A stretch of 47,138 bases of DNA. It comes from Rhizaria sp. SCN 62-66. Its lineage: Eukaryota. Each line of letters starts with the position of its first letter. The first letter of the stretch is position 1. Location: contig MEDY01000232.1 of assembly GCA_001724265.1 (NCBI GenBank), forward strand, positions 1 to 47,138. Direction: 5' to 3'. A program made the translations under genes and the position numbers. The notes beneath the pieces are model-generated. The model did not search any database. It saw only the letters and a program-made list of their open reading frames with translations, and was not told the DNA's origin. Shown in pieces: positions 3,306 to 26,733 of the stretch.

Positions 3306-6300
3306 TTAGGCAACCGGCTTCCATTCACGCACTGCGCGGGCAAAGAGCGCTGCCTCTGCTTGGATGCTGTTCGCGAGTCGCCACCACGCAACAGCAGTCG
3401 GGTGCTGCGGCCCGCCCAGCACCGCAGCGGCCGCAGTCGCCGCACCCAAGGCAGCAGCGCGGGCGGCGACAAAGGCCGACGCTGCCTCGGTGGCGGCCGC
3501 GGTGACGGCAGCAGTGTCGGGGCCCGCTGCAGCAGCATTGACGGCAAGCGTGGACGCCAACACTGTCTGGTGCGATGAAGACGACTTCTTGACGGATTGC
3601 GCAGCGAGGGCAGCGACGGCGGCGGATGTAAAAGTGGTTGCGACAGTGGGCTGCGCCGACTCAGATTGCTGCGACAACGACGAGATGTCGGCAGTCTCCG
3701 TGTTGTTGGCAGCAACCTTAGCGCGGTAGCTCGCAAGCACTGGAGCCAGCGGCGCGTTGGCGGCGGCGACTAAAGGTGCGATTTTACCGAGCAGGGTCCC
3801 CATGATAAACTGCTGTGCGCGCGCCACGGTCACTGCGTACGGAGCCGTCGGAGCGGCAGCGAGCAATCCCTTAGCCAAGCTAAGTACGTCGGTGGGCATC
3901 TGGGTGAACAGATCAGCGACAATATCGTCCTTGGACATGTTCCACTCGTCGATCTCGCCGTCTTGAGGAACTTGAGCATCGGACCGGGTCTTTGTCTGGC
4001 GGATCGCCTTGTTGAGCCCCGGAGCGAGCTCAGCCAGGTCCAACACCCCTCCAGCGACGAAGCGCGAGTGCAGCGTGCTCGAACCCACGGTCTCAGCCTC
4101 CTCGGAAGTCAGGCCGCCGAGCTCAGTCGCGACGCGCACAGCAGCCGCGGCAAGGCCGGGGGCGGCGGCAACGGAAAACAGCATACTGTTGGCGTGGTGC
4201 TCATTGCCGTCCCTACTGTCGTCAACAGTCCCGTTCGCTGAAGGATGGTAGTTGCGGTTCGGCTCCAAGAACACCAAGCCCTTCGTTTTGTCGTTCTTAC
4301 CACTGACAGCAACGCTGAACCCGAGCGTCTCCGCCCAGTGTCCGGCGCCAGTCACTACGGCCACTGCGTCGGCCGCGGCGCCGTGACCCGCGCTGCCGTC
4401 CAAGTACGCCGCCCAGTCGCCGGCGGTCAGCACCCCGCTGCCCAGCGCAGTGCGCGGCGCGCGGAGGCCCGAGGCGGCCCGCAGCGCCGCCGCCGTAGCC
4501 TCGCGCGCGCGCGCGTTACGGGCCGCGGCGAGGCGGGAGCGGTACTGCGACAGCGCCGCGGACAGCGCCGGCAGCAACTGCGCCAGCGCCGAGGAAGCCG
4601 ACTGCAGCATATTAGCGTTCGTGGGGGCGTCAGTCGCTGCAGTTGTCGCGGCGGCTGCGAGGGCAACGGCGAGTGCGCGCGCGGGCGCTGTGACAATGCT
4701 GACTCTGCCCCTCTCGGCCTTGCTCTTCGCATTCGTGCTGGCCGCGGCCGCGGCGACAGGCAGCAGCCTCTGCAGCGCGCCCGCGGGCACCGGCGCAACC
4801 GCCGTCGCCGTCGCCGCCGCCGCGTCCGCCGCGGCGCCCTGCCAGCCGCCCTTAACGGCAGCGAAGTGGTACAGTCGCGCGAGCAGGCGGTGCGGGTTCA
4901 GGTGCAGCGGGCCCGGCAGTGACAGCGCGCGCGGCGGGGCCGGGACGAGCACTGAGGCCAGCGTGTACTGCGCGGCCGCCACGGCGGGCGGGAACAGCGG
5001 CGGAAGCCAGTAAGTCAGGCCACCGAAGCCGCTGGTGTAGGGCGCGTCGTCCGAGACCAAAACAGCCGCAGAGGGGGCGCGGCGGCCGTGACCGTGGCCA
5101 GCGTGAGCGTCGGCATTGTTGTTGTTAGAGCCAGGGCGGTGACGAGCACCGGGCCTCTGCTGCTTCTTGTTGGTCTGCGCACTTGCAGCAGCCTTTGCGG
5201 CAGCAGCCTTTGCGGCAGCAGCCTTTGCGGCAGCCGCGGCCGCAGCAGCGCCCACCGGCGGCGTACTTGTGGACGCGCTCGCGCTATTTGCGTTGGTCTT
5301 GGCACTGTTGGCGTTGCTGCTTCCAGCCCACTCATCGCGAGTCGTGAACATGACCCTCGTCATCAGCGCATCAAGCGCGTGCGCCGCCGTGTAAGGGCCC
5401 AGCGCGTGCGATGTAAGGGGGGTACTGAGATCGATACCAGCGCCCTCACCGTGCAGCACCACGCTGCGCTCCCACGCGTCAGAAACCGCGAGGTCTAAGT
5501 GCCCACTTACACTGTTGTCGGCAGCGGTGATGTGGAGAGCCACGCCCGCGTGTGCGAGGCGCTCAGAAAGCGCTGCAGCGGCAGTGATCAGAGGGGCAGT
5601 GAGCGACTGCAGCCCGTGCTGCGACAGAGACAACGCGGGTGGATCGGGCGCAACCGTGAAGTCGTCTCCACTTGAGTCAACATTTGAGTCAGTGGCAGCG
5701 GCCGGCTGCGAGAACAGAGGGTCAAACAGTGACAACGAGACTACCGTCGCCAGGATGCCTTGCGCCACGCCCACCGCGTGTGCAGTCCGGTGCAGCTGAG
5801 GAGCGAGCGTGAGGGCCGCCACAGTCGCCTCGGCCACGTCCCCCGTGAGGGCACGCACGAGTTCGGCGGCGGGCAGCGCGCGAGGGCTGGCGGTCACGAG
5901 GGACAGCAGACTGTCGCTGCTAGCGGCCGCCTTCGCGTACGCTGGAGCAGCTGGAGGCATGAACACACTGGCACTGGCACCGACACCGACACTCCCACTT
6001 GCACTGTCGCCAACTGCCGCAGTTGAAGCGTCAGCCTCAGCGTTGGCCGCAGTCATCGCGGCGGGCAAGAGAGCGGCTGCATAATCGAGCAACGCCTCGG
6101 CGTGGGCCAGGCCCTTGCTGCTCTGAAGTCTAGCCGCCTCGCGCAGCAGCTCCCCGGCCCGTGCGCTCACAGCGGCGGCGGCGTCCAGTGCGCCCGCGGG
6201 CCCCGCGGCGATCGCGGCGGCGGCGGCGACGTCTGCGGCCGCGGTGGCCGTGGCGGCCGCGGAGAGGGACGTCGCGGCGGAGAGCAGCGCGCGGGCGCCG

Positions 6301-9300
6301 CCGTAGCTACGGCATGGCAGCCCCTCCCAGGGGGACCACAGGTGCAGGGAGTGGAGCAGCTGCAGCTGCTCTTTCTCGACACCATTGGCGGCATGCTCTG
6401 GAATAAGATCAGCAGCACCATTCGCATTCGTGTCGTTGCTGCTGGACAGAAAGAGAGAGTCGCCCGCGGCGCCGGCAGCAGCGCTGAGCACCCGTGCCAG
6501 CGCCGAGCTGCGCGGCATGCTCACGGCCACCGGCTGCACGAACGCGGCCGCTTTGCTGCCTACAGCCACTGCGCCAGGGCGCGCACGGGCGCGGACTGTC
6601 GCGGCGACGGGCGCGGCGGGCGCGGGCACCAGCGTGGCAGAGCTGGCAAAGCCCTGCGGCGCGGGGCACAGCGCAAACGCGGAGGCTGCGAGCGCGGCCG
6701 CGTGCAGCTGGCCGTACACGCGCGCCCACTGGCCGGCGACGAGTGCCTCTGCGTTGCCGCCCGCGTCTACGTTTGCGCTGGAGTGCACAGGGATGATGCC
6801 GGGAGCCACTAACGCGCCGGCAACTGAGGTTAGGCCGCCGCCGAGAGCGTGTGCGGAGTCTACGGCGGCGTTACGGCGTAACGCCTCACGTGCAGCCACT
6901 GCGGCGGCGGGGGACGCCGCATGCACACGCGCTGCCGCATCAGCCGCGCTCGCAGGCGTGTCAGAGCCGGCGGCAGCGCCAGAGTCCGTCGCTGTCGGAG
7001 CGGCTGCAGCAGCGGCAGCGGTGGCGAGGGCGTGGATGGCGCTCGCAGTGGTCGTGGCAGCGCGCGCGGCCGCGGCGTCCGCGGCAGCCAAGTCGCCACT
7101 CATCGCCAGCGCAGCCGCAGCCGCCGTGTTGACGAGTGACGCGGCACTGACGCTTAGACCTGAGGCGCTCGCACTCGCGGAGAGCGCCGCCCCGAGCGCG
7201 TCCAGTGCGGCCACAGAGGACCCCGCGCAGCCGTCGGCCGTCGCCGCGGACAGCGCAAGTCCCAGCACCAGCGCAGGCGCCGCCGCGGGCGCGACGCGGG
7301 CGCCCGCCGCCGCCAGCGCCGCCGCCGCGGTCTCGGCCGCGGGCGCCAGCGCGAGGAGCTTGGCCGTCCACGCGTTGACGCCCGCGCCGAGCAGCAAGTC
7401 GCGAGGCTGCGAGTGCGCCGAGAGCCAGCCGGGGGTGCCGGCGGCGAAGGCGGCGGCCGCGGCCGCGGCGGCGGTCGCGGCTGCGGGCAGCTGCAGCCCC
7501 GAGAGCAGGGCGCGGTGCGCGGCCGCGGTGAGCAGCGCGGCGCGCAGGGCAACGCCAGCGCCGACGGCGGCGTTGCTGCCGCTGTCAGAGTTGCTGTTTG
7601 TGATCGAGGTGACGCCCGTGGCGCGCAGGGCAAAGGGGAAAATGCGGTACTCAGAGATCACTTCAGCTGCAGCGGTGTTGAACGCAGTGGTAGCGACACG
7701 TGAGTGAATGCGTTCATCGTGCTGCTGTGTGGTCTTTGAGGCCGACGCAAGCGGGCCCTTGGTGGCAGCGGCGAGTGCCCAGCTGCCGTCGCCGGGTAAG
7801 TGTCCCAGCACCCTTAGAGTGTCTTCGCGGAACACTGCGCGCGCGTGCGTGGTCGCCGTCGCACGTACAGAGGGCGAAAAGAGCGCCGCCACTGCGTCGC
7901 CAAGCAGTTCGAGGCCGACAGGCTCCCCAGCGGCGGCGGCAGTTTCGGGGAACGAGTCGGGAACCGGGTTGTCGCGCCCGGGAATGGCGGCAAGCGCGCC
8001 GGACTCGGCGAACCTGGCCGTGTCGGTCAGCCGCTGCAACGCGCCGCCGCCTTCGCGCCCGCCGTCGCCGGAAGCTAGCACAGTCGCCAAGACCGGGTCG
8101 CCGCGCGCCACGGCCTCCGCCGCCGCCTCGGCCGCCAGTCGCACCGCTGGGGGTAGAGGGGGTGCGCCGCCCCGCGCGCGCGCCGCGGCCGTGCCGGGGA
8201 TAATCGTAAGCCCGGCGGCGAGGGCCGCAGCGGTGGCGGGCGAGAGGTCCGTGAACTCGGTCCAATGCAACAGCGCCGTGAGCAGAGCGTCCGAAGCCGA
8301 TGCCAGCAACGCCAGCGCGGACTGAGCTGAGACCGCGGCCGCGGCGGGCGCCGGCGCGCGCGCAGCTGGCGGGGAGAGCAGCCGCACCAGGGCCGAGCCG
8401 GCGACGGCGGCGCCCACGGTCGAACTCGCACTCACAGTTGCGGCCGCGGAGGCCGAGGCCGAGGCAGTGCGGCGCAGAATGCGGGCCGCGACACTGGGCG
8501 GCACGAACGCGGGCGCCGCTGACATCGCGCTGTCACTGCCACCGTTGTTGCTGGCAATAACAACAGCAGTCACCGCGGCCGTCGCGTGGCGCGCAAGCAG
8601 GCGCAACGCGTCAGCGCCAGCGGCTGCGGCGGTAGTGGGCGCTGGCGCTGGCACTGCGGCGGCTGCGAGCATAGCGCGGACGCGGGCGGTCTGCCGCGCG
8701 GCCGCGGTGTCCGCTAGAAAGCGCGCGGCGATCACAGTCGCGGCTGGCACAAAGGCGACCGCGTTGGCGGCAACGCGGGACGACACGGCCGCGACGGCAG
8801 CGCTGGCGATCGCGACTGCGCGGTCAGCGCCCACGCTTGCGCTGGCGCTCGCAGTGTCAGCTTGTGATTCAGCCGCTTTGGCGAGCGTGAGAGAGAACGG
8901 CGAGCTCGCGCGCGCCCACGCCGCATCCCTGGGCAGCGCGAATGTAAGGGGGTACGCGGCCGATGTAAGTGCCCGGGCGACGGCGCCCAGCGGCAGCACG
9001 GCGGCGATGTTGCCGAACGCGCGCGTCACTGCGGTCGCGAGCAGAGCGGTGCTCTCCGCGCTGTACGCACTGCGCACGGCGCTGGCCACGCGGTCTGCGA
9101 TGACGGCGCGCGCGGCCGTCACCGCGGTCAGCACGGCGGCGCCCGCGCGCGAGCGCCAGAAGAGCGCGTTAGCCGCGTCGCGGGCTCCCTCAACGACGGC
9201 GCTGAGCGCGGCGGCGGCGGCCGCGGGCACGGACAGCGGCGCGCCGAGTGGAAGCGCAACCGAGCCGACGGGGGATGCGCGCGCGGGCACCGCCGTGAGC

Positions 9301-12300
9301 GGGCCCAGCAGCTGCGGCGGGAGCGCGGCAAGCGCGGCGAGCAGCGAGGCCGGGGGCGCGCGCGGCAGCGGCGGCAGCGGCGGACACAGGGCGGCGGCCG
9401 CGGCGTCGCTCAGAGAGCTACTCTCGTTACCAGTGCCGTTGCCGGAGCCGGTGTTGTTGCTGTTGTTGATGGTGGCAACGGCAGCGTGCACGGTGGCAAA
9501 GCACGTCAGATACGCGTCTGCCGCGGCCGCATGCAGCGACGCACCGGCGTACTTGAATCGGCCCAGAGTCGTCGCCGCAGCGCCGCGCGCCTGCTAGCCC
9601 TGCTTCGACTGCTGCGCCTGCGAGATGTTTTGCGCCGATTCGAGCCCTTCAAAGGCGCGCAGCGGGTGTTTCACGGCGTGGATGAAGTCCGGGTTGCTGA
9701 AGAGGGCAAACATCGACACCCCCACGTCGCCGCCGCGGCCCGCGCCCGCGCCCGCGCTGGCGCTGGCACTCATCGCGCTCGCGGCGACGGCCGTGGAGAC
9801 AGGGGCGTGCGCGTGGGAGCTGCGGGCGAGACTCGCGGGGCTGAGGTAGCTGCCGATAAGAGGCAGCGCCAAACCGGGCCCCAACAGGACCTCGCTCGTG
9901 CTTTTCGCACTAGCGGTGTCCAAGTTGGCGGAAAGGGTGACCGTGAGCGCTGCGGCGGTGGCGGCGGCGGCGGAGTCAGCCCAGTCCGCGAGCTGCGAGA
10001 CCGTGAGTAGGCGCGGGGTGACTGTGAGCAGCTTGAGCGCCGAGTCCGCCGCCGAGGCCTCGCTGTCGCCGGGGACGGCCGGCAGTGCAATGTGGCTGTT
10101 GTTCGCCACGCGGGCCGCCGCGAGCGCGACGGCGACGTCAACGCCGTGGGCGTTGTTGGCAGCAGCCTCGGTTTGCTGCTGGTGCTGCTTGCGGGCCTGG
10201 CGCACGACAGACAGCGACGGCGCGGCGACTGTGTCCACGGGGAGACGCTTGTAGTGCGCTTGCAGCAGCAGCGCCGCAACGGCAGCGCGGCGCACGACAC
10301 CACCGTCACCGCCACTAAGCCCACTCTTAGACTGACGAGCGGGGGCGGGTCCATGAGCAGCCATCGCGGCTGCTGCCAGCGCAGGGTCGGCTGTCGCGGC
10401 GCTGATGGCTGCCGCGACGCGAGAAAGCGCCGTCGTGAGCACGCCGTCGTCAAACATACTGCTGAGGGAGACACTTGCCTGACCGCCGGAGGATGCCGCG
10501 TCAGCCGCGGCGTCCGCAGCCGCCTCCGCGGCCTCTGCGGCAGCAAGAGCAACGGCGTCGAGCAGCAGCGGCGCAGCAGTGTGCAGGTTCGCGGGCGCGC
10601 CGCCAGCCGCGGTTGCAAGCGCCGCCGCGGCTGCGACAGCAGAGGCGGCGGCAGCCCTTGAGCGCGCGTCCGCAGTGCAGGCGCGAGCCGCGGATGCAAC
10701 AAGCCAGGAGTCTAACGGGATGCCCGTTGCAAGGGTAAGTACCCGCATCGAGTCTAAGTAGGACAGCGCGGGCAGCGCAGCGAGGCGGACGTAACTGTGC
10801 GCAGCGGTCAGCGCGGCGCTGACACGGCCACTGCCGTCACTAGAGCCACCGAGCACGCGCGAGACGCTGAGATCAGACACGGAGGAGTTTGTGCTGAACT
10901 TGCCAGTGGCAGGAGTATAGCTGAGAGCAGTCGTCGCAGGCATATGTAAAGCGGACAGCAGCTCACTGACGTCACTCCCAATCTCATTCACACTATACTG
11001 GGACGGCGACTGCAGCGTTGAGGGCTTCGGGGCAAAGCGGGAGCCTGCGGCGAGAGCAGCATTGGTGGTCGTGACAATGACAAGGCCCTTTGCCTGGGGC
11101 CAGGCGCGGTCAAACGACCACTGCTCACGGTCACTCTCAGCCTCCGCATCAGTTTCGTTCTCCGAGCCCGACTGCGCCTGCGCCTGCGAATCACACCGAC
11201 AGCGTGCGGCCACAGTCGCCGCCGCGTCGCGCGCAGAGACGGGCGCCGTGAGTGATAAGGGAGCAGGGAACAAAGGCATCGTCGAGAAACCCTTCGAGAA
11301 ACCAAAGCGGCTTGCGAATGCGTCATTCCCAGCAGTCTTAGTGACGTTACCGCTGCTCATAGCAGCGAACGCCGCACTGCATTCATCATGAGTCGGCTGT
11401 GGCATGATAAAAGTCAAACCGCCACACTTCGCCCTGCTAATATTGCTAAACGTGGCATTCGCTTGCTTTGACTTCGCAGACACAGACGCGGAGGCAGTAG
11501 TTGTGCCGCGGACGCCGCCCGCAGACTCGACGATCGAGACCATTTCCGCGGAGTCGGCGCCGTCGAACACCAGCGTCCACGACGGCAGCGTCAGTAGATA
11601 CGCGTTCAGCACGGCCGCGGCCTCACGCAGGCTGAGCGCGCCGGCGCCCGAGGCGGGGCCGTGGGGGCCGGTGCCTGTGGTCGCCGTGGCCGCGGCGGCG
11701 GCGGCGGCGGTGATGCCGGGGGCGGAGGACAGCGCGCCGCTGCCGGCTGCGGCGGGGGCGAGCGCCAGGTAGTCGATCAAGGCGAGGTACGAGGATAGTA
11801 AGGAGGCGGGGGAGTCGGCGCTGAGCCAGAAAGACGGCGACGACGGCAGCACAAAGTAGTGGTGGTACACGCCGTCACCGTCGCGGGCGTTGCACTGCTG
11901 CTGCTGCTGCTGCTGTGTGTCGGCGCTGTCGGTAATACGCCGCGTCGCCGTCGCCGTCTTGAAGTTAGGCCGCTCCGCAAAGGGCGCGGTAAGCGCGTGC
12001 GCGACGAGGCTAGTGCGGCCCGAGCCCGCGTCGCCGGCGACGTACACGACGCGTGGCGCGGCGAAGGCGGCGGGGCCCGCAACAGGGGCGGTCATCGCAA
12101 AGAAAAAAGAAGACAGGGGCTCGGTGCGGCCTACGAGGGCGCGGGCGGAGGCGGAGACTGCGGCGGTCGTGTCCGCAGTGAAGAATGACGAGCTCGTGCT
12201 GGCATCGCAGTGCGTACTGCTCGAGTTGAAGGTTGGATTTGCGGAGAGACTGAGACCATTAAAGAGAGACGTTGTCATCAGAGCCTGCGCGACCGTGACC

Positions 12301-14486
12301 GCGTCGCTCTTGACAGAAGCAGCGGTGACGCCATGCTGTACACTGGTTTCGATCGCAAGAGTGCGAACTGCATTTACGAAGCCCAATTTCTCGGAACCGT
12401 GTCCCCGGGTAGCGGTAATGTCAGAGACAGTGTTTGCCACGACCACTGCCGCTGCCGCCGCCGCCGTCACACTGGCGCTGGCGCTCGAGCTGAGGCCCTC
12501 GCTGTGACCGTGGGCGTAGAGACTGTGGGTAAAGTGACTGTGAGCGAGCGGGGGCAGCGCGGGCGTGACGCCGGCGGGCAGCGAACCCGCCGCAGCAGTC
12601 AACGCAGCCAAACTGGTGCTCGCAGCCACGCTGTTGCTATGCAAAGCAGCGGCATTCACTGCGGCAGCGGAAGTTAGGAGCGCGTCAGCTATCGACTCAG
12701 TCTCAGCAACGGCATCACCAGCGCTGCTCTTGCTCTTACCGCTGCCGCCGCTCTTGGCCTGACTCGCCCCAGAGCCAGTCCAATGCGCCCATAAACTGTG
12801 GCCACCCTCATTGCCGTCGTCCACCGACGAGGCCTGCTGCCGCCAGTAAAACGACTTGCCGGCGGCTTTTTTGGGAACCGCGCGCCACTGAGGCAGCGGC
12901 AGCGCGTATTGCAGCCACTCCGCCGTAGTTTCCGCCGCCGCGGTGGCCGCAGTCCAGGCCTCGTAGCCGTGGGGCTTAGGCGCACCAGCTGCAGCTTCAC
13001 CACTGCTAGACTTCGACTTATCAGCGGAATCATTCTCGCCAGCAGATGTAAGTGCCCCGCTGCCCTCCTGCCTAAGCGTCCCTAGCGAACGCAGCACCGC
13101 CGCGATCACGCCCACGGGCGACACGGTCGCGCTCGCGCTCTCGCCGGTACTCGTGACACGCGTGACCGTAATGGTGCGCGCGCCGTTGGCCCCGCCAGTC
13201 AGCGCCCCGCCGCCGCCGCCGCCCACGGTCGTCTCCGCCGTCGTGACGGCCGCGAACGCGGCGCCCGCCCACTGCGCGGGCGTGGGCGCGGCGACGACTG
13301 TGAGGAGCGCTAGCGCAGCGGCGAGGATGGCGGCCAGCGCGAGGTAGGGCGTCGTGGACAGGTTGCTGTCGCCATGGCGGCCGCCGTGGCGAGGCTCCTG
13401 CGGGCGCGGGCGCTGCCGCCGAGCGTCGCCGTGGCCGTGGCCGTGACCGTCATCATCTTCGTCGTGGCCGCGGCTGTGGCTGTGCCCGTGGCCGCCGCCG
13501 CCGCCGTGGCCGTTGTGGCCGTGGACGTGGCCGCGGGTTTGGGCCGCACTGTAGTTCGGCGCCGAGGAGGAGGCCGCCCCACGGCTGCTGCTGCTGCTAC
13601 TACTGCCGCTGCTAGCCCTGCTGTTGTTAGCAGCTGCGGGAGGGCGGCTGAGACCGGCGGGGGTATTCAGACGACTATTCGCATTGGTGGCGCCAGGACG
13701 GGCGGCGCTAGAGCTACTTAGAGACCAATTGTCGGCGCGATGGTCCATGCCCCTAAGATCCTCCTCGTGTAAGGGCGCGACGGTGTGCGGCCGCGCCTGT
13801 CCCAGTCCGGGCTGCCGCGCGCGCGCAACCAGTTGCTCAGTGTCATTGTCATTATGGCGACCGGTCGCGTGTCCATTGCTATTGACAGTGCTCCGTGCAT
13901 TGATGCTGGCAGTGACGACGCCACTGCGGCTGTTCGTAGTATGGAGCCGCGAGTTCGAGTTGCTGTTGTTGTGCGGCGCGCGGGCAATGAGGGCCGCCGC
14001 GGCAGCGGCAGCGGGCGTCAGAGTCAGCGCCAACGGCTGCGGCAAAGGCTGTGTCCGCGGCTGCGCCAGCGGCTGCGCACGGGCGTTGGCGCCAGAGTCA
14101 GCGGCAGTACCGACAGAGCGGACGCTGGCGGCCTTGGCGGCGGCTGCGGCGGCCTTGGTAGCACGCATCAGCGCTATGGACTTCACCGGGCCCGCCGCGC
14201 TGTCGGTGGTCGAGTCGTTCGCAATTGCAGCGGCGGCAGAAGACTCGTCAGCGCAAGCAGCGGTGTTCAGTGTATCTTGGGCGCTGCCGTCGTCGTCGTG
14301 GTCGCTCTCTTGCAGCAACCCTTCCCAGTCCTCTTCCTCCTCGCTGGCGTACGCATCTGCGCTGTCATCATCGTTGGCAGCGTCAGCGCCAAAGCGAGCA
14401 GAGGGCTCGGACTCAGGAGCAGGCTCGGGGGGGCTCCCCGCCGCGCCCCGGGTGATTGGGGCGACGACGACGGCGCGCGGAGGCAT
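3306..14486 (-). CDS. Very large Ala-rich protein (~3,726 aa when the in-frame TAG at 9596-9594 is read through) with an N-proximal TM helix, a degenerate NB-ARC/STAND P-loop domain and a TPR-like C-terminus
   Basis: ORFs 9594..14486 and 3306..9491 share a frame and are separated only by one TAG plus 34 sense codons (SKQG*QARGAAATTLGRFKY...). Motifs VYVAGDAGSGRTS, FWLSADS, WTLVFDGAD, GLVIVTTT, GGAPANL and C-terminal LGGPQHPTA. Ends TAA. Confidence 0.7.
5188..5232. repeat. Coding tandem repeat, 15 bp x3 (GCAGCCTTTGCGGCA), encoding AAAKA repeats
   Basis: Directly visible three-copy repeat within the minus-strand CDS. Confidence 0.8.
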
Positions 14487-14797
14487 TCAAAAACAGCACA
14501 GTGAGGGAGCAAACAAAGCAACGGAGGAAATTATGTTCGCCTCAAAGATTTCTAGTTCTGTGTGTGTACAGAGCAGAGTAGACGCGAGAACGCGGCTGAG
14601 GCGGCGAATTGGTGGTGGCAGAGATTCGAGAGAAGCAGCGGAGTTTGGTGAGTTTGAAAACTGGGTTAGGATCCGTTGATAGCCACATTTGAAAAGATCC
14701 AAATAGAAAGGCGAAATATGCGTTTAATTTCCAAATTATGATTCCAGATACCTCACTTCACCACGTCAAATGTATCTTTTTCAGCCGGTCTCGAGCA
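14487..14797. promoter_or_regulatory. Short divergent (head-to-head) intergenic region, probable bidirectional promoter
   Basis: 311 bp, lower-GC spacer between start codons at 14486 (-) and 14798 (+). Confidence 0.5.
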
Positions 14798-17700
14798 ATG
14801 CTTGGCGCGCTCCAGCTCGCCCCCGCCGGCCCCGCTCCCCCGCCGCCCCCGCCGCCGCTCTTCGTCCTCCGCGGCCATCGTTCCGACGTCACCAGCGTCG
14901 AGTTCTGTGACTTGCCTTCCTCCTGGCTGCCCACACACTCCGCCTCGGCGCGCCTGCGCGACGCCACAGTGCCCTGTGTAGTGTCCGGCGACGGCAACGG
15001 CCAGGTGACGCTGTGGGACCTCCGCACGCGCCGCCCGCTGTTGTCCTTTCTCGCGCACAAGTAGTCGGTGCTGCACGTACGTAAGACCTTACCATGCACC
15101 CGCTTAACGTGTATTACATGCCATTCATCCTCATGCGACTGATATATCTACTTGTTTTCTACTCGACACTTCGCTGTCTCACCCCACACTTTGTCTTTTA
15201 TTATTGCGACGTATCCACCCCACAGCTCTCGGTCCCGGCCTCCGCACAGTGCCACATTCTGCTCTCGCAGGGCAAGGAGGGCGGCATCTCTCTCTGGTCC
15301 CTCCCCAAGCTGCTCGCCCTCATCGGGTCGCACACTGCACCTCCCTCCTCCGGCGAAGCCCCAGCAGCAACAGCAACAACTGCAGCGGCCTCTGCTTCTG
15401 CTTCTGCTTCTGCGAGTGCGAGTGCTCCTGTGACCGCGCCCGCGCCAGTGGCACGCCCGTCTGCGATGATTCGCCGCAAAGCCAACGTCGCCGCTGCTGC
15501 TCCAGCACTGACCTCCAGCTCTGGCGCCACCGCGTCAACCGCCGTGACCGCCGCCGCCGCCGCCTCGGCGACGACTGCAGTAGCCCTGCCTGCTGCCGGC
15601 GCGGCCGCGGCGGGCGCGCGCGAGGCCGCCGCGCGGTGGCTGGTGTTGTCGACCGGCGTCGCCGAGCCTGCGCGGCTGGCGCGCCTGACCACCAACGCCT
15701 ACGGCTTCCTGCGCTCACACCTCGTCCTCGTAGACACTATCCGCGTCGACAGTGTCTACGTCGACAGCGAGCCCGGCCCGCAGAGCGCGGGCGCCGGTGA
15801 CAGTGCGAGTCGGCGGAGAGCGACAACGCGGCTGCAATACCTGCTGGCGACGCCTTCGGAGCACGCCTCGTCGGTCAAGGTGTGGCGGCTTGACTTCGAT
15901 ATCACTCTCTCGAGCTCTGCCGCCGCGACACCCGCGACAATTGGCACGGCGTCCGCTGCGAGCGCGAGCGTGATCGACAGCTCGGTGGCCCTGGTGTCGT
16001 CGCAGCTTGTCAGCACCGTCACGCTGGACCCGCCCAACCGCCCGTTCGCGCCCACGGAACGCACGGTGCTAGATCACGACGCCACGACCCTCAGCACCAC
16101 CGCCAGCGCAGCCGCAAAGAAACCGATCACTACTGCGCCACAACAACAACAACAGCAGCTCTCGCCAACTGCGCCGAGCAGCACTGTCGCGGTGAGTTCG
16201 GGCGCCTTTCTACCGCCCGCGGCACCCTTGGCGACGGCGATGGCGCTGGGTCTGTTGCCCGCCGCGCCGCGGCCGCTGTCTACCGCCACGAACTACGCCT
16301 ACCCGTTGCCACCCGCTGCCTCCGCCGCGGCCTCCGCAGCCGCGCTCGCGACTAAGGCTGCTGCCAAGACCGCAGCCGCAGTCGCGGCCGCCGTGTCCGC
16401 CGCCTCTGCTGCCGCTGCCGCAGCCGCAGCCACGGGGGGCTCGCTGCGCGCGGCTGCGGCCGCGGCTGCGGCAGCTGAGGCTGCCGAAGCTACGGCCGCG
16501 GCTGCGGCCGAGGCCGCTGCGACAGCTGCCGGCGCCAGCGCCGTGGCCGCGGCCCGCGAGTTCGGCGTCGCGGCGACGGGCCGCGCGATCACGGGCGCGG
16601 GCAGCGCCTCGGCCGCCGCGGCGCGGGTCTTGGTGCGGCGCCATCTGCTGCTGCAGTCGCTGCCCCACTGTGTGCGCGCGAGCAATGACTGCGACGCCTG
16701 CCATAGCAACGATGGCAGCGACTCTGTTCGCATGAAGGCTGTGGCGAAGGTAAGTCAAGCCGCGTCCGCTGGCGTCGTGGCCGCGCTGACGAGCGGGTGC
16801 GAGACGGCCGAGGACGGCGACCTGCGCCGCCGCCGCGCCAAGGCGATGGCGCCCTTTGCCGCGGCGACGACGCTGACGACCCTGGCGACCCCAGCGGCGC
16901 AGCGGCGGCCGCTGGTGCCTGCCGCGCCGCCCCGCGCGCCGCTGCCCGCGCTGACGGCCCAGTCCGCGTTGCTGTGGCAACGGGCGCGTGCAGAGCGGGA
17001 CAGGGACGCCGACGGGCCCTGGGTCGCGCTGGCGGCGCTGCAGTCCGCCGCCGCGCTCACGGCCGCTATCAACGCCAATACAGCTACATCCGCCTCTGAT
17101 GCAACTACTGTTACAGCAGGTGTTGGTGCTGCTGCTGCTGGCCGTGGTTTGGTGACGATGAGTGCGGGGCCTATGCTTGGTGCAGCGACCGACGCGGCAG
17201 TGAGCACCCTCGGATACACTCGGAACCGCGGTATCGCGCTGCCCAGAGTCGCTTGTACAGCGATGACTGCAAAGACACAGGGATCAGCAACATCAACCGC
17301 AATAGCGACAGGAGATGCAAGTGCGGCACAGTGCTCTGAGACCTGTGTGAGCGACCCTGAGGCGATGTTTTGGGACTGCGACATGATGAGTTCAGAAACA
17401 GTCTCAAGTGCACTGACACTCAATCCCCACATCCGTCATTGCGGTTCTTCTGCTGTCTCCGAGAAGACAAGCCGCGTAGCGACTACTTGCGCTGTTGGTG
17501 GTGCCAGCAGCGGCGGCCCACGACCCCTCGTCCGCTGGCCCGGCCAGTCTCCTGACTGCGACTGTCCCGCCGCCGCCGAAGCCGCCGCGGCCGCCTCTGC
17601 GAACGGGCTGCCCCCGACCGGCGACGGCGACGACGAGGACGGCGTCGGCAGCGGCAGCGGCAGCGGGCGCGGGCCCAGCGCGGCCGGCGATGAAGGGGAG

Positions 17701-20457
17701 GAGCAGGGCGCGGCGAAGGGGTACGGAATGGTGATGGCGTGCGAGGTCGCGGCTCTGCGCTTTCCATTGCCTCATCATCTTTGCGACATCAACGGCGCCA
17801 ATCAGCCACAGCAGCAGGGTGACCGGGGCGTCGTCGTGGTGCTCTCGGTCGCCACCGAGAGCGGCCACGTGCTGCTGTTCAACCTCACGCCACCGCGCAG
17901 GCAGCTGCTCACAGTTGCCACCGACGCACCCATAGCCGCGAGTACGACGGACGCCGGCAGCAATTGCCTCGATGCGATCAAGAGCGGCGATGCGAGTCGT
18001 GCGACTTCTGGTGATGACGCTGTTTTGGTCGCCAAAGAATCAGGCCTAGGAGCGGCGTTGCGGCGCCAGCGTGCGTTGGAGCAAAGTCAAGCCGCCAGTC
18101 GGGATGGCCAAAGTCAAGCCGCATCCGCGACTGGCAGCACGCTTGTGTCACAGCGCGCCGTGCAGCTGCAGCCCGCGGTGCTTGCTGTCCCGCAAAAGCC
18201 GATCGAGACAAGCACATGTTCAGAGTCACCTGAGTCTGCGCAGGCGGCGCGGTCAGAGGAAAACTTCACAGTGTTTCCAGTTGTGACTGTTGGGCTGCCC
18301 CGCGTTGTCACCGTTGCGGCAACATCCCCCCAGAGCATTGCCGTCACTGCTGATGGACCTATCTTTGCTGTAGTGAGCTCTGATACGAGTATTGATGCGA
18401 CCATTAGTGCCAACCCAGACAGCAACGCTGCTTTTAGGGTCAATGCGGGCATCTCGGCACTTCAGAAGCGAGGTACGCTCTCATCAGCTCTTGCTGCAGC
18501 TGTTAACAACAACACCACCACCAACAACAACAGTGCCGCAAGCGCGAATGAGATAGAGACGGAGAATAACGATGCGATGGCTCGCGAGGCCTCGCTGCTG
18601 CTGCCCCAGCTTGTCTGGCGCGGCCGTCTGGCTAAGGGACCCCTTACATCCCTCTCGTCCTCAGTCTCCCCCCTAGACTCTACGCAGAACCACAACAGCT
18701 ACGGTGGCCACAAGAGCGCCGCCCGTCGTGAGAGCTTGCCCACAGTCACCCAGACTCCGCTGTCGTGGCTTGGCCTGACGCTGTACGCCGCGGGCGCAGG
18801 CAAGCGCGTGACGCGGCTTGACTTCGAGGTCGCCTCTGAACCCGTCTTTGTCACGACCCCCGCCTCGCACACGGCGAGTGCTTCCCCCATTGCACCGGTA
18901 GTGGTGCCTGTGACGGACTCGCTCACTGCGAACATAGCGGCCATCACGAGCTTATCCGCGTTAAGCAATCCTTCGCCTGTGCAGCCAACACCTGTCCCGA
19001 ATGCGTCAGTGGGCGTGACTGGCCGCTTCGAGTCGTCTCTCGTCCAGCTGGGCCTGACTCGCGCCGTCGCGACTCTGCTGCCTCGCCCCGGCGTCGCCGA
19101 GCTCACAGTCACCCCCGTGCGCACAGTCACCACGAACAACAACAGCAGCAGTAGCAGCAGCAGCAACAACAACAGCAGCAGCAGCAGTGTCAAGGCCAGC
19201 ACCAGTGCGGCTGCGAGCGCGATTCGGTGGCGTGACCAGGACGTCGTCGCTGGCGCTGGCTGGGATAAACGCGTCTATCTCATCAAAGGACGCCACTACC
19301 GCCGCTCTCGTCGCAGCCTTGCAGTGCCGCCACGCTTTTCTACAGCAACAGCAGCAGACAGCGCAAGTGCAGGTTCCGGTCGGACCGGCGTTAACGCCGA
19401 GTTTTCGGAGTTCTACCGCTCACTGTGTATCCCGCCGTTCGGCGCGATTGGCCCCGCTGCTGCGGCTCCTGCAATTGCCCGCGCGAGCGCTGATGCGGGC
19501 GACACAGAGCGCGGCCCCCTAGTCCCGCCTATTGCAATCGCGTGCTGCCTGCGTGCGGAGGAGGCCCTGGGGCTCGACAAGCCCTTCGCAGCCCCGCGCT
19601 GCCTCGTCGCACCCCCGCGCCCGCCTCAGAGCGGCTTGAGCGCTGCCCCGGAGGATGACAACGCTGCAGCAGCGCAGACGCAGTGGCTGCGCGAGGTTGA
19701 TGCTGTGAGGAGTGCTGTGGTTACCGGCATTGCGCTACCCCAAGCACGGCTGCTAAACCGGTTCCTGCAACATTACGACGGCGGCGACCGCACGAGCATT
19801 GACACAGAGCAGCCCCAGTCATCGTCAGATTGGGCTGCCCTGAAGGAGGCTGCGGCGACAGTGTTTGGCGTTGCTCTTGCGTTTAGCAGCGATGAGACCG
19901 ATGGAAGCGCTCTCCCTAGCATTAGCAACGACAACCCTGATGGTGAGGGAGATAGCGACGTCAATGCGACCTCCCAACCCTCTTCTGCCCTTGCCCTGTA
20001 TCAAAGTCAGGCCGCGTCGGCTGCTGCATACCAGTGGGCGCTGGGCGAGCGCGGCACGGTCGCCGACGACGGCGTGAGCGGGCTGGCGGGTGTGCTGCGC
20101 GAGCACACGGCTGGCGTCGCCGCAGTGCGCTTCCGCAAGCACCGCCGCGTCGGCGCCGTCGTGCGCGAGGGCGCTGCTGAGCGGGCGGTCGTGGCTGTGG
20201 CCGCAGACGGCAGCGCTGGCGCTTGCGATGCCGACTCAGGGAGCCGAGCCGTGACTGCAGGCAGCGGCCGGCTGGTGACTGTGGGGGGCAGGACGGTGAC
20301 CGTGGGCGACGGCACTGCATCCGCGACCACTGGCGCCGGCGCCGGCGCTGTGCAGCTGGAGAGGGAGGCTGGGGACGAGGTTGACTGGAGTCGGGGCGGG
20401 TACCTGGCTACGGGCGGCCGGGACGGCGTCATCAGCATCTGGCAGCCCTACGGCTGA
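14798..20457 (+). CDS. GNB1L: GNB1L/ASA1-like WD40 protein with very large low-complexity insertions; exons 14798-15076 and 15226-20457; ~1,836 aa; in-frame TAG at 15062-15064
   Basis: Ordered family-like motifs: PPPLFVLRGHRSDVTSVEF, SGDGNGQVTLWDLRTRR, LLSQGKEGGISLW, GMVMAC, ESGHVLLF, PGVAELTV, AGWDKRVYL, GVLREHTAGVAAVRF, LATGGRDGVISIW. Intron 15077-15225 (GTACGT...CACAG) is phase 0 and joins the two frames. Ends TGA. Confidence 0.82.
15077..15225 (+). other. Spliceosomal intron of the WD40 gene (149 nt, phase 0)
   Basis: GTACGT donor matching the other introns, pyrimidine-rich body and CACAG acceptor. Splicing restores WD40 continuity (SVLH/LSVP). Confidence 0.85.
19135..19187 (+). repeat. 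AAC/AGC trinucleotide tract encoding NNNSSSSSSSNNNSSSSS
   Basis: Directly visible within the WD40 CDS. Confidence 0.75.
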
Positions 20458-20824: not shown

Positions 20825-22531
20825 ATGCTTCCGCCATCGCGGCGGCTTCAGCGCCTTTCAATTACGCCAATAGGATTAGCTATCATTTTACTTGCACATC
20901 TGTGCTTCCTTCAAGTTGGCGCAATGCCACTGCGGGTTCACAAAGAGCTTGAGGCATCGACCGATTTGTTTTCAAAGCGGCACCCGAACAAGCCTGCATC
21001 GGCAACAGTGACAACAACCAGCTCTCGCCCACCAAGCACTAATCAGCACAACTTAGAGCAAGAACAAACATTGAAAGCATCCACAACTAATGATGGTACC
21101 TACTTTAATAGGCTACGCCAAGAACATGCCTTGCGCGCATCTATGCTGCCGTTTTTACGTCACTATTCTCTTCACGATCACGGTCATATGCCAGCAGACT
21201 TGTTTCACCCGAGCGCATCGTTGTTCCACTCAAGGCTGCTGTCGTTTCAACCCTTAGTTCGACTCAGGGGACCGCGGGCTATTCCGATCAGGCATAGCAG
21301 CCCCACTGTGTCACACACTGCATACATGCACTCTGTTGCACTGAAGGCAAAGGCGCGCACAATGCTGCGCCGTACAGAACTGTCCAGCAGTATAGTTAGT
21401 GCAAATACAAGCCAGAACGGAGTTGATAATCTCTTGGTAGCTGTTGGCATCGGACACAGCAAAGCTGCATCGCTAGCGGATTACAACAGAAAGAAAACTG
21501 TTTCTGTCCTGTCCCGCGCTCTATTGCGCGTGACGAAAAAGCCAACGTTCCCATGGCTACCAGAGGCGAAGCCGTTCACACGCACTGCGAAAAATGATGA
21601 CTCTAACGACGAGTATGACAGAGAGATTGTCAGGTTTGTGAATGAACTTGTGGCCCACTTAAAAGACCTTGAAACCAATTACAGCTACAAGAACAAAAAC
21701 ACTGATAACGAGGCACGCGTTGTTGCGTTATCGTCACCATTATTCGCACAAACGGATCGTTACAAAACAAGTTTCAAAAAACAAACTTCTTTAAACATCT
21801 ACACCTAGAAAAACATTTGCACCAAGAAAAACGCGCTTGATTTCACGTCCAGCTCAGCTAACACGTGTAAAAGCCCACACATGCGCGAAAAGAGCACGAT
21901 TTCAAGTCCAATATGGCTAACTCTACCATTGACACAACAAGCTGCAGCCGCGCTTACCAACACCCATTTACTTTTTCCAGCCTTATCGCTGCTGTTCCAA
22001 AGACAGAGGCAGAAAAAGGGCAGTCTTGAAGGCGTAAAAGAAAAGAAGGCATTGAAACACCCGCTGGACCTTCAGCGTTTATTGCGTCGACGTCACAGCT
22101 TACGTGCCGCATACACGCGTTTCCTGACCGTTACTGCGCCGCGGCTGCAAGATCGCCGCAATCGTCGCCGCGCGATTGCAACACTTCTAGACACCATTGT
22201 CTCCAATGCGCGCGCCACAGAGCACATCCACAGGCGTGTCGCTGCGTACAACGCACTTATTCAGCGCATCAAAGCCCCTGTCGTAACCGTGAGCAAAGCG
22301 GCGTTTGCGACTGAGGCCGACGCGGCAAAGGCGGCGCAGGCAGTCATGCTCGCGGCGGTGAGGGCTGGCGCGGCGGCGGCGGCGCGGGGCGTGGGTGCGC
22401 TGCCGAGCTTCATCGCACACGCTGTGGCCGCCGAGGAGCGGTTAAAAGACGCGAATAGCGATGTGAGGAGACAGAGACAGCGGGTGATGGACCATAGAAG
22501 GGCACAATTTCTGGTCTTCAGCGCACAGTGA
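20825..22531 (+). CDS. Hypothetical basic protein with a signal-peptide-like N-terminus; ~568 aa if the TAG at 21806-21808 is read as sense
   Basis: ORF 20825..21808 ends in TAG, followed by 24 sense codons in frame with ORF 21881..22531, which ends TGA. Hydrophobic segment IGLAIILLAHLCFLQVGA near the N-terminus. No recognisable domain. Confidence 0.55.
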
Positions 22532-22944
22532 TTGTGATGTCAGAGAATGCAATGGAAATTCAATGAACATGCATGCAATGGTGATGATTTGAGTAATTGC
22601 TAACATGAGCCAACATTTAACGCGGATTGGAGATGTGGTAGCAAAACAAAATTTTGTGATTGTATTGCTATTTTCAAATGTCGTATTGATGAGCGCACTA
22701 GAGGCGACACTGGTATTGAAACATGCGACATTTGTGCTGGCCTGAAGCTCCATCATGTACGGTAAAGTTGCTTTCGCGATCGTGGTTAAACACGATATTC
22801 AGAAGGAAATCGAAAAACAAAAAATAAAAATCAGGGAATCAATTATTATGAAATACAAAAATAGTGTTAAACACATACAAATACACAAATAAAGAAGATA
22901 AATCACGAAAAAAGTTGTTTCGTTTCAACGTGTCACTCAGCAGC

Positions 22945-24816
22945 TCACTGCTGCAGAGGCCGCAGATTGCCCGCGGCCTCGTTCTCCATGAACGCATTAA
23001 TCACCGCCGTGGCCATCATGCGGAAGACAACCGTGCGCAGCAGTCGCCGGTCGCTGCGGAAGGACTGCGCGACGGGGGGCGGCGGCAGGACCGTGAACCC
23101 CCCGCCTGCTCCCATGCCGCCTCGGCTGCCCGCAGCAGTCGCGTTGCCGCCGCTGTTGCGGCCAATGGGGCCGTAGGCGCTCGTGGCCGCCGCAAGGGGG
23201 TTTACAGCAGGCTTGGCCACTCCAGCGGCGGTCGATGGCTCTGCCTGAGGGCGATCGTTGATGCCGTCAGCATATTCGGCGCCGTTGTCGTCAACAGAGC
23301 CAGCGTCGTCACCCTCACCGTCGCTGCCGTCATCGTCGTCACTGTCAGTGTCGGCATCACCTTTCCTCCCAGTCTTCGCAGTATCAGTCTCACGCTCAGG
23401 CGCAGGCTGAGAGGCACCGTTCCGACCCACAGTCTTTGGCCCACTCGGAGCGCGTCCCCCGGTGCCGAGCGCTGCCATCCGCTTTTTGGCAGGCTTGGGC
23501 AGCAGCGGCAGCAGCCCCGTGGTGACAAGCCGGGCCAGGAACGCCTCCGAGTCGGCCACGAACCGAGCCGGCTAGGTGTAGAAAAACCCATGCGACCACT
23601 CGCTGCCGCCCCTGCCCCTGCTGACCTGAGACGCCGCTGCGCGGGCCGCCAGCGCGCCGCCGCCGGCCAGCCGGGCGCTCACGCTCACGGCACCCGCGCC
23701 GCGGCCGATGTGGAGCGGCGTGTCGCCGTCGATGCTGCTCGTAACGACCAACCCGCCGGCGCCGCCGCCAGAGCCGCTGCCGCCAGAGCCGCCGTCACCG
23801 GCCGTGCGCGGCACGTGGGCGAACCGCAGCGCGGCCTAGAAGCTCTGCTCCGGGATAGCCAGCGAGCTGCGGAGCGCGCGCGCCTGCTGCAGCGCGCGCT
23901 GCGCGAACTGCGCGTCCTCTGACTTGGCCTCCGCGTCAACGACAAAGGTGTCAGCGCTGCTGCTGCTGTTGTTCTCTAAGGAGAGACGGCTGAGGAGCCA
24001 CTTTTTGGGGACTTGTTGCGCTGTTTTGACCGCGGCGAAGGGGTTCACACAGTCGCTCGGCGCGTCCGTCAGCTCGGACTCATCTGCTGCAGCGCTGTTG
24101 CTGTTAGCGCGCCAACTGTTAAACGTGGGTAAGTACCCCCTTAGATGCACGGGGTAACCGTGGGCGAGCTGCTCGAGCACTGAGCGCCACGCCGACAGCG
24201 ACGAGTGCGCAAACCACCGCGTGCGGCGGCACCCCTCGCTGTGCTGCCCGGTCTGCGCCTGCACCTGTGCACTGTTCTGCGCGTTGTCAACGTTGTCAGC
24301 GCTTGGGTCAGCGCCGTCGTCGTCATCGATGCCGCCGGCGACAATGCGTGCGTAGACGTCGTCAAGCCTCACGCGCAGCATCGCAGCCTTGGTCGCGGGG
24401 CTCCAGCGCCCGCACGCAGAGCAAACGGGATACGCGACGTTGCTAACGTTCGCAGCAACGTCCTGCGCACGAGCGTCGTCAACGCTAACAGGGTTGCAGC
24501 GCGCGCAGGGCACGGAGCGCCAGACGGTGGCGAGGTCGTCGCCGTACTCTTCGAAGAAACAGCGGAATGTGAGCGTCTCCTGCTTGAGCCGCGAGCGCAG
24601 CAGCACGCGGTCGCGCCACATCGTCTCCAGCATTTCGGGGGGCCAGATCGAGTGCCTCAGCGACGCCACGGCGTCCGTGTCCACGTCCGTACACTGTGCC
24701 ATGTGCGCCGCGGTGGCCTGCGCAATGGAGGTGAGTCCACAGCAGTCGCAACCGCCGCCGAGCACGGAGTCGGTGATGACGCGCTCCTCCACCCACTGGT
24801 CGCTGTAGGAGCTCAT
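22945..24816 (-). CDS. Hypothetical protein, ~623 aa, with N-terminal CDCCG and two CxxC pairs; two in-frame TAG codons (23838-23836, 23574-23572)
   Basis: ORFs 23836..25011, 23572..23814 and 22945..23559 lie in one frame and are separated only by single TAGs. Likely start ATG 24816 (MSSYSDQWVEER), where the sequence shifts from AT-rich to GC-rich. Ends TGA. Confidence 0.72.
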
Positions 24817-25154: not shown

Positions 25155-26733
25155 ATGGCCGAATCGGGCTACTACGACATCCTTGGTCTTCAACGGACCA
25201 GCACCAACAACGAGGTCAAGGATGCTTTCCGGAAGCTCTCCCTCAAGTGGCACCCCGACAAGCACGACGACAAGGCTAAGACCCTTGCCGAGCAGAAGTT
25301 CCGCCAGATTGCCGAGGCCTACACCGTCCTTTCCGACCGTACGTTGCAACCCCAACTCTCTCCTCTCGCTGATCAGTTTCTGTCTCGCCAAGGCCAAGAA
25401 TCGTTCATTTGGGTTGAATTTTTTGTGTTTTGTTATGGTTTTATTCATGATATATTGCCGTGCGCTGGTTGTGTTTTGTCCTCTTGCTCTACTCATTCTT
25501 TGACCCAACTGTCTTTCAATCACCACCTCTGCATCTGCACCTGCTCATCACCCTTTGCGCTCCCTCACCCGCACTTACGCACACACTCGGTCCACCCTTA
25601 CAGTGCGTCTCCGCGCCCGCTACGACCAGTACGGCATGGGCGGTCTGACTGGCGGCGAAGCTGGCTCTGCTGCAGGCGGCGGTACGTTCCCTTGCCCAAT
25701 CCTCTCGCTTCTCCTAGTCACATCACTTTAACGCTCTGACTGACCCTTTAACAATGTCCAGTCACATCGAAATCAAACTATATTGTAGGCATCCTTATAT
25801 CCCCGTATTTTAACTTGCGCACCTCATTGTTTCTTTCATATCATGTCATATTCGCATTTGTTTTCTGCCCGTCACAGAGTCCACGTGGACCTTCCAGGAG
25901 GACCCGCACTCTGTCTTCACCGCCTTCCATGGCACGGCCTCGCCGTTCGCGGCCGCGCTGTCGACGGAGCTGCTGTTCCGCGACCCGCGCGAGGAGAAGC
26001 AGCCCCAGTGCCCGCCTCTTGAGGTCAACCTCTACCTCTCGCTCGAGGAGCTCTACCAGGTACGCTTGTTTACAACCAACGAACAATAACACGCATCCGA
26101 AGAGCTATATCGAGAGCTGTTGAGTCGGAACTAAGCATTTACATTTTTACTATGTTAAGATTATTATTTTTGCTAAGTATTTTACGAAGTATTTACCTTG
26201 TTCTTATCATTACGCATTTTGTTCTTCTAATTCATTTCCAGGGCGCGTCCGTCAAGGTCAAGGTGACCCGCTCCGCGCTGCAGCCCAACCTGACGACCAC
26301 GGCCCCCGAAGACCGCATCCTGACCGTGGCCGTGGCGCCCGGCTGGCGCGCCGCCACCAAGCTTACCTTCCCCGGCGCGGGCGATGAGGCGGCTTCACTT
26401 AAGGCGGGCGACGTCGTGCTCACGGTCCTCGAGAAGCCGCACCCGCGGTTTACGCGCGTCAAGAACGACTTGGTGCACACGGTGACGCTGTCGCTGCTCA
26501 AGGCGCTGACGGGCACCGTGGTCGAGGTGCCCACGCTGGACGGACGCGTGCTGGCCGTGCCCGTGACCGACGTCGTGTCCCCCGGGTACGTCAAGATCGT
26601 GCCGGGCGAGGGCATGCCTGTCAGCGGCAAGGAGGGCAAGAAGGGGAACCTGCAAATCAAGTTCGACGTTGTGTACCCGGCGGCGCTGAGCATCTCGCAG
26701 AAGGAGAAGCTCGCGCTCATCCTGCCGCAGTAA
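25155..26733 (+). CDS. DNAJB13: Type II Hsp40/DnaJ protein, DNAJB13/RSP16-like; exons 25155-25338, 25604-25681, 25878-26059, 26242-26733; ~311 aa
   Basis: J-domain (YYDILG...KWHPDK...AEAYTVLSD/LRLRARYDQYG), short G/F linker (WTFQEDPHSVFTAFHGTASPF), LYLSLEELYQG and DnaJ C-terminal domain (PGWRAATKLTFPGAGD, VPTLDGR, PGEGMP). Three GTACG(T/C)...CAG introns splice in frame. Ends TAA. The subfamily call is less certain than the DnaJ call. Confidence 0.85.

Follow-up and report, generated by a model that had tools for sequence, protein, structure and literature searches.

How can a gene be expressed intact when an in-frame TAG stands near the beginning of its coding sequence? This question is raised by contig MEDY01000232.1 of the assembly labelled Rhizaria sp. 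SCN 62-66, a metagenome-derived stretch of 47,138 nucleotides (nt) that is referred to here in its entirety as the window, in which a gene for a WD40 protein carries TAG at positions 15062-15064. This TAG is real DNA and lies in a coding frame. The answer proposed here is that TAG is probably a sense codon in this organism, whereas TAA and TGA are stops. A wider reading is offered tentatively, with slightly more doubt than confidence: the organism would represent an uncultured, Ichthyosporea-related lineage of wastewater reactors with a genome rich in guanine and cytosine (GC), in which UAG has been reassigned, UAA and UGA have remained stops, and UAG is used at a very low, early-stage frequency. 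Holozoa, the opisthokont branch that includes animals, would thereby gain its first nuclear reassignment of a stop codon. The argument rests on the open frames and the coding composition that persist past the TAGs, on a conserved motif downstream of two of them, and on the recurrence of the TAGs in independent assemblies.

The first exon of the WD40 gene (14798-15076, plus strand) begins with the ATG at 14798 and comprises 93 codons, the TAG included, in a frame with WD40-type matches. Read from this ATG, the frame runs ...VVSGDGNGQVTLWDLRTRRPLLSFLAHK-TAG-SVLH, and the exon thus ends ...WDLRTRRPLLSFLAHK-TAG-SVLH. The TAG is codon 89 and, in alignments with chains of the Protein Data Bank (PDB), falls within the GH-x-x-x-V motif of the second WD40 repeat, at the second of its variable positions. 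The initial annotation had placed it within such a repeat, 12 nt before a splice donor, and all of its coordinates proved correct on direct reading. The donor is the GTACGT at 15077-15082, 12 nt 3' of the TAG, and its phase-0 union with the CAG at 15223-15225 would remove a 149-nt intron (15077-15225, plus strand). Exon 2 (15226-20457, plus strand) would then begin with LSVPASAQCHILLSQGKEGGISLW..., in the frame of a 1790-codon open reading frame (ORF) that occupies 15085-20457 and ends with TGA. This union, which had been predicted, leaves the frame open as far as the TGA at 20457. Exon 2 contains long Ala/Ser-rich insertions and, at its end, a WD40-like strand (...GGRDGVISIW...), and the C-terminus before the TGA reads ...GGYLATGGRDGVISIWQPYG. 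Termination at the TAG would yield a product of 88 amino acids, in keeping with the expectation of fewer than 90. The exon/intron model also fits the base composition, because GC at the three codon positions of exon 1 is 0.71/0.56/0.88 (the third value being termed GC3), compared with 45% GC in the intron and 44% in the 5' flank of the gene. The GC3 of exon 2 is 0.72, and in the exon-1 frame the intron is interrupted by a TGA.

The presence of WD40 beta-propeller repeats in exon 1 is clearly supported by sequence comparison. A phmmer search against the PDB gave clear WD40 matches, among them a designed WD40 propeller (E=7e-19). Weak support came from Pfam, where PF00400 was matched at E=8e-4 and 20.3 bits, under the cut-off of 27, and the WD40/propeller models as a group at E-values of 3e-4 to 6e-3, none reaching its cut-off. 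The PDB chains aligned to exon 1 carry S, E, D or A opposite the TAG, and this variation makes the site uninformative on the inserted residue. With regard to the identity of the protein, the label GNB1L/ASA1/DSE1 given in the initial annotation stands as far as the WD40 repeats are concerned, but none of the searches returned a specific orthologue, and neither GNB1L nor Asa1 was among the 60 PDB matches listed of 431. The N- and C-terminal strands may nevertheless be similar to those of GNB1L. The C-terminal part of the protein gave no relevant match in the PDB, no Pfam family was found for exon 2, and no relatives of exon 1 were found in JGI metagenome contigs or prokaryote genome contigs. 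In a set of 5.8 billion proteins, exon 1 matched, at near lengths, only the 88-residue fragment from the window itself, and no longer proteins.

We infer that the intron at 15077-15225 is removed from the WD40 mRNA, mainly because its donor agrees with what appears to be the splice consensus of the organism. A single 1064-nt contig of run X11 represents spliced DnaJ complementary DNA (cDNA), from which three introns have been removed. After resolution of mapping ambiguities of 1-4 nt, these introns start with GTACGT, GTACGT and GTACGC. Moreover, the gene at 27283 can be completed only via an intron that starts with GTACG at 27922. Thus, GTACG is found at four of the four other introns, and the donor at 15077 would be the organism's own consensus. 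Taken together, the five introns recognised in the window (15077, 25339, 25682, 26060 and 27922) all open with GTACG(T/C), three of them with cDNA backing, and the 5' splice site is unusually uniform among them. All GT/GC...AG pairs that would remove the TAG at 15062 and keep the frame were enumerated. The donor AA/GTAGTC at 15061 does not contain GTACG and restores the frame only with the acceptors at 15416, 15422 and 15518, which lie 350-460 nt away, deep in the GC-rich exon 2; this bears out the earlier view that the donor fails with nearby acceptors. The joint 15076>15226 was not among the 15 joints listed for the read/contig layout, in which 154 further joints exist; many of the long joints listed are not splicing, since their sides measure 20-25 nt and lie in GC-rich repeats. 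The gene model with the TAG inside the coding sequence is supported as the only one to fit the splice consensus, the change in base composition and the unbroken WD40 repeat alike.

The need to translate the TAG at 15062 is reinforced by four more in-frame TAGs in three neighbouring genes. Among them, the single-exon gene at 22945-24816 (minus strand, 623 codons, TGA end), with TAGs at 23838-23836 and 23574-23572, offers, through its alignments, firmer evidence than the WD40 gene. A search of 1.84 billion representative proteins, with TAG entered as X, gave 83 matches at E <=1e-3, two of which are the window's own truncated pieces. The three of the 83 that extend past the N-terminal domain were aligned, and these homologues match the gene on both sides of both TAGs. 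At TAG 23838, the three follow the flanks residue for residue (PE-x-x-F-[E]-x-x-L-x-F), with Glu opposite the TAG in every case and GAG as the codon of the closest relative. It is this residue-for-residue alignment on both sides that makes TAG 23838 a stronger case than the WD40 TAG, which the initial annotation had ranked first. Opposite TAG 23574, beside a gap of one residue, the homologues have Leu, Leu and Val. Of the 81 family matches examined, 45 contain the C-terminal SF-x-x-DRR motif, which in the window occurs, as SFRSDRR, downstream of both TAGs. Because the conserved N- and C-terminal ends belong to one protein, translation through both TAGs would be required. The family to which this gene belongs (proteins P0130-P0210) is eukaryotic and has an N-terminal domain of approx. 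100 residues (C-x-D-x-DT ... WPP ... W-x-DR ... R-x-RLK), together with the C-terminal motif SF-x-x-DRR-L-x-R. No Pfam model was found for this gene or for four of its homologues. An exact look-up of seven read-through translations of the gene (TAG as Q, E, L, K, Y, W or S) found none in the public protein collection, where the TAG-bearing genes are represented only by truncated pieces of 88 (WD40 gene), 326 and 204 amino acids.

The two remaining TAGs lie in two further ORFs. An Ala-rich ORF of 3727 codons (3306-14486, minus strand, TAA end) contains a single in-frame TAG at 9594-9596, which is codon 1631 and stands in a Gln-rich stretch. Reading TAG as sense joins the frames at 3306-9593 and 9594-14486 into this one ORF, and GC3 on both sides of the TAG is 0.73-0.93. 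The ORF is a single exon and encodes 3726 residues of extremely Ala-rich protein, for which no Pfam family was found. The other TAG (21806-21808, plus strand) is codon 328 of a 568-codon ORF at 20825-22531 that ends with TGA. It lies inside an 18-nt tandem repeat, the sister copy of which reads AAG (Lys) where the TAG stands. This ORF has a GC3 of only 0.4-0.6, compared with 0.57-0.97 in neighbouring genes, and a putative N-terminal signal peptide can be recognised by eye. It gave no Pfam family, and no orthologue was found by tblastn in two contigs of a relative (L001 and L002), of which L002 is syntenic. Two further TAGs (27994 and 28123) that appeared in-frame at first look were discarded, as they lie inside an intron.

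In total, the approx. 13,500 coding codons of the window (12,625 plus 312 of DnaJ and 569 of the ORF at 20825) include TAG in frame five times, at 9594, 15062, 21806, 23838 and 23574 and spread over four genes, and TAA and TGA never occur in frame. Of the eight gene ends, five are TAA, three are TGA and none is TAG, a small sample of low statistical power; the two gene ends available for the relative are TGA and TAA, i.e., TAG in none of two. Only TAG as a sense codon fuses long GC3-rich ORFs, whereas TAA or TGA as sense merely adds codons from untranslated regions or introns. Past the TAGs, the frames stay open for 2096, approx. 1750, 241 and 296 codons with coding composition kept, and GC3 on the two sides of TAGs 9594, 23838 and 23574 is 0.57-0.93. 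No frameshift or stop of another type was found downstream, and the TAG-bearing frames thus show neither the extra lesions nor the loss of composition that characterise pseudogenes. The codon that follows the TAG differs at each site (TCG, CAG, AAA, GCC and CCG) and the TAGs are internal; neither the shared downstream context nor the location at a normal gene end that marks programmed readthrough was found. The window as a whole has 63% GC, with approx. 65-74% in exons and approx. 45-55% in spacers, and its ORFs are very long and its introns few.

One sequence recurs at the TAGs themselves. The 11-mer TCTACACCTAG is identical at two of the five (21798-21808, plus strand, and 23572-23582, minus strand), in the same codon phase, and the sterol methyltransferase gene contains an in-frame copy with one mismatch, which ends in AAG (1519-1529, minus strand). 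The three matches compare with 0.17 expected, and three were reached in none of 100 shuffles. Chance may account for the shared 11-mer, as may a mutational hotspot or a decoding context.

The TAGs also recur outside this assembly. Sequence of the window is partly present in 18 rows of public runs from 11 studies, and half of it or more in four rows; these are bioreactor, wastewater and activated-sludge metagenomes. Contigs of the organism reach lengths of up to 78.6 kb. A contig of X3 that covers 14309-16360 shows 0 differences and keeps the TAG at 15062. The same TAG is kept in a contig of X4 over 14427-15299, which has one single-nucleotide polymorphism (14518); X4 differs from the window in at least eight places in the 20 kb compared and therefore represents a variant. 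The 88-residue fragment that ends at this TAG is recorded on seven contigs from several sources, and in general fragments that end at the TAGs or start after them were found on six to seven contigs. TAG 9594 is carried by contigs of X3 (9399-13097) and X10 (9550-10007), and TAGs 23838 and 23574 are carried with 0 differences by contigs of X3 (21519-24101) and X10 (23273-24040). TAG 21806 is present, again with 0 differences, in a contig of X11 (21790-22117), and it is the only one of the five that is covered by a run demonstrably holding spliced cDNA. X10 is labelled a polyA metatranscriptome, and its contigs are unspliced across the exon-intron borders at 25188-25460 and 27594-28077.

Several observations weigh against TAG being a sense codon. 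TAG is very rare, making up approx. 0.04% of codons, and is the rarest codon of all; it does not occur in the 5724-codon receptor ORF at the end of the window, in the sterol methyltransferase gene or in DnaJ. With the codon usage of the window, 2712 single-base changes would create a stop, which in 1711 of them (63%) is TAG, and because this would be the share of TAG among random nonsense changes, finding TAG at five of five sites has only p ~0.1. Similarly, the lack of TAG at eight gene ends is weak evidence when taken alone. The hints at the inserted residue disagree, with Glu at 23838, Leu/Leu/Val at 23574, Lys in the repeat copy at 21806 and a Gln-rich context at 9594. No tRNA genes of any kind were found within the window or in L001 and L002; Rfam families were likewise not found within the window. 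Among the RNA contigs shown, none spans the WD40 exon junction or the TAG at 15062, and the X10 contigs that cover three of the other TAGs may derive from DNA, given that the run behaves like DNA or pre-mRNA. Finally, the relative's contigs, with a 509-codon orthologue and a 214-codon WD40 fragment, lack in-frame TAGs and are therefore silent on how widely the trait extends.

The main rival is a UAG that is leaky, i.e., formally a stop, but one that is weakly recognised by eRF1 and usefully read through by near-cognate tRNAs, so that TAGs survive at tolerant sites and no dedicated tRNA is involved. We regard this as unlikely. The disagreement among the residue hints is what would be expected if the TAGs had arisen from many different codons, and the extreme rarity of TAG points in the same direction, as does its absence from the two genes that can be recognised as conserved and of housekeeping type, namely those for the sterol methyltransferase and DnaJ. 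However, none of eight genes ends with TAG. Furthermore, TAGs stand early or midway in their genes (codon 89 of approx. 1,840 and codon 1631 of 3727), positions at which inefficient readthrough would carry a high cost, and the nucleotide after the TAG varies (T, C, A, G and C), so that no common downstream readthrough signal is apparent. Considerably less probable is the suggestion that the TAGs are nonsense alleles, marks of pseudogenes or errors of assembly or consensus. The metagenomic source of the sequence makes such errors conceivable, contigs omit rare variants and could hide a minority sense allele, and the preponderance of TAG among the stops is, as calculated above, not significant by itself. 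Yet it would be implausible for half of the eight genes in 47 kb to have acquired five nonsense changes between them, and the intact frames downstream, the recurrence of the WD40 TAG in both the X3 contig and the variant X4 contig, and the fragments bounded by TAGs on six to seven contigs all argue against it. Least credible of all is that the WD40 TAG is spliced out, e.g., from the donor CAG/GTGACG at 15005 to the acceptor at 15225, so that this gene needs no unusual decoding: such splicing is in frame, leaves no stop and is contradicted by none of the RNA contigs shown, but it discards sequence with a coding GC3 of 0.88, including 24 codons with the WD-bearing strand of the first repeat (a loss that had been foreseen), its donor does not have the GTACG of the four other introns, and it leaves unexplained three TAGs (9594, 23838 and 23574) whose GC3-rich ORFs are unspliced and, in part, share with homologues the residues on either side of the TAG.

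If UAG is indeed a sense codon here, the WD40 mRNA would be spliced from the GTACGT at 15077 to the CAG at 15225, an aminoacyl-tRNA would decode UAG at codon 89, and the full protein of approx. 1,840 residues would be made. Decoding would presumably involve a dedicated tRNA with the anticodon CUA and an eRF1 that does not recognise UAG. Gln or Glu is our guess for the inserted amino acid, and Leu and Lys are also candidates.

Published codes offer precedents for the decoding of UAG as sense alongside UAA and UGA as stops, which supports the sense-codon reading. In the nuclear code of the sainouroid Rhizaria sp. exLh, UAG encodes Leu and UAA and UGA are stops; 384 UAG codons occur in 71 transcripts, at conserved Leu positions, and they are rarest in ribosomal-protein genes (PMC5304391). 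As in exLh, only UAG is found in-frame in the window, and genes end with UAA or UGA. The rarity of UAG in ribosomal-protein genes of exLh is also paralleled by the sterol methyltransferase and DnaJ genes, which have no TAG. However, UAG is common in exLh and marks conserved Leu, whereas TAG is extremely sparse in the window and a Leu/Val hint exists at only one site; moreover, the sterol methyltransferase tree places the organism near Ichthyosporea, not Rhizaria. In the fornicate Iotanema spirale, UAG encodes Gln and accounts for approx. 8% of Gln codons, UAA being the main stop (PMC5304391). The window resembles this code in that UAG is decoupled from UAA and TAA is the commonest terminator (5/8). 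In contrast, Gln is hinted at only by the Gln-rich context at 9594, and the lineage is unrelated and its genome GC-rich. UAG encodes Glu in the ciliate Oligohymenophorea sp. PL0344 (PMC10553269) and the trypanosomatid Blastocrithidia (PMC12153298), in both of which UAA is also reassigned. The conserved Glu replaced by TAG 23838, for which the relative has GAG, is reminiscent of these codes, whereas TAA ends five of eight genes here. The window thus appears to have a known kind of code in what looks like a new lineage.

Known programmed readthrough extends a C-terminus past the normal stop and depends on a defined downstream context. With programmed stop-codon readthrough and natural suppressor tRNAs, as treated in PMC4150775, the present case has in common that the ribosome would pass UAG with no change of frame. 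Unlike in programmed readthrough, the TAGs are internal and their downstream contexts differ; it is upstream that two sites share the 11-mer TCTACACCTAG.

Nuclear code changes are found in only a handful of eukaryotic lineages, and reassignment of UAG alone is rarer still (PMC5304391). If the reading is correct, code change would have arisen independently in a relative of animals as well, and UAG at its present frequency would represent an unusually early or lightly used stage. Such a stage would be useful for testing models of stop-codon capture, i.e., codon disappearance vs. an ambiguous intermediate. In practical terms, gene callers that apply the standard code split such TAG-bearing genes. 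A literature search for nuclear code changes in Ichthyosporea or Holozoa, with subscription journals and supplements outside its scope, returned nothing relevant.

The affinity of the organism was assessed from the sterol 24-C-methyltransferase gene (631-1575, minus strand). Its closest relatives, 69-83% identical, form with it a clade known only from metagenomes. Identity is 56-61% to the proteins of Abeoforma, Creolimax, Sphaeroforma and Pirum and 37-42% to the plant and fungal proteins among the 120 matches listed. When 33 chosen rows were placed in a maximum-likelihood tree, the enzyme fell into the all-metagenome clade of nine rows (support 99/99), which lies beside the clade with these four ichthyosporeans, the 19 rows together being supported at 100/100. 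These data point to Ichthyosporea as the nearest group, and the placement, which is that of a single gene, is provisional. Searched against genome contigs, the relative's sterol methyltransferase gave only bacterial homologues, with identity of 41% or less. Gene order in the relative's contigs L001 and L002 is conserved with the window, and L002 contains the C-terminal part of the WD40 orthologue (2453-3097, minus strand), which ends with TAA. The relative with the 83% identical sterol methyltransferase is represented by 12-kb JGI contigs.

A few observations concern other genes of the window. A search of the ESM Atlas with the 326-residue fragment of a gene neighbouring the WD40 gene provided no lead (scores of 0.75, TM at most 0.30). 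The ORF at 29963-47137 (minus strand), which exceeds 5724 codons and runs off the window, has no in-frame stop of any kind. It contains many Sushi repeats and a REJ domain according to Pfam, as well as hydrophobic stretches that resemble membrane spans. Sushi and REJ domains are commonest in animal proteins, and in its domain content the predicted product is like a giant receptor of the polycystin-1/REJ type.

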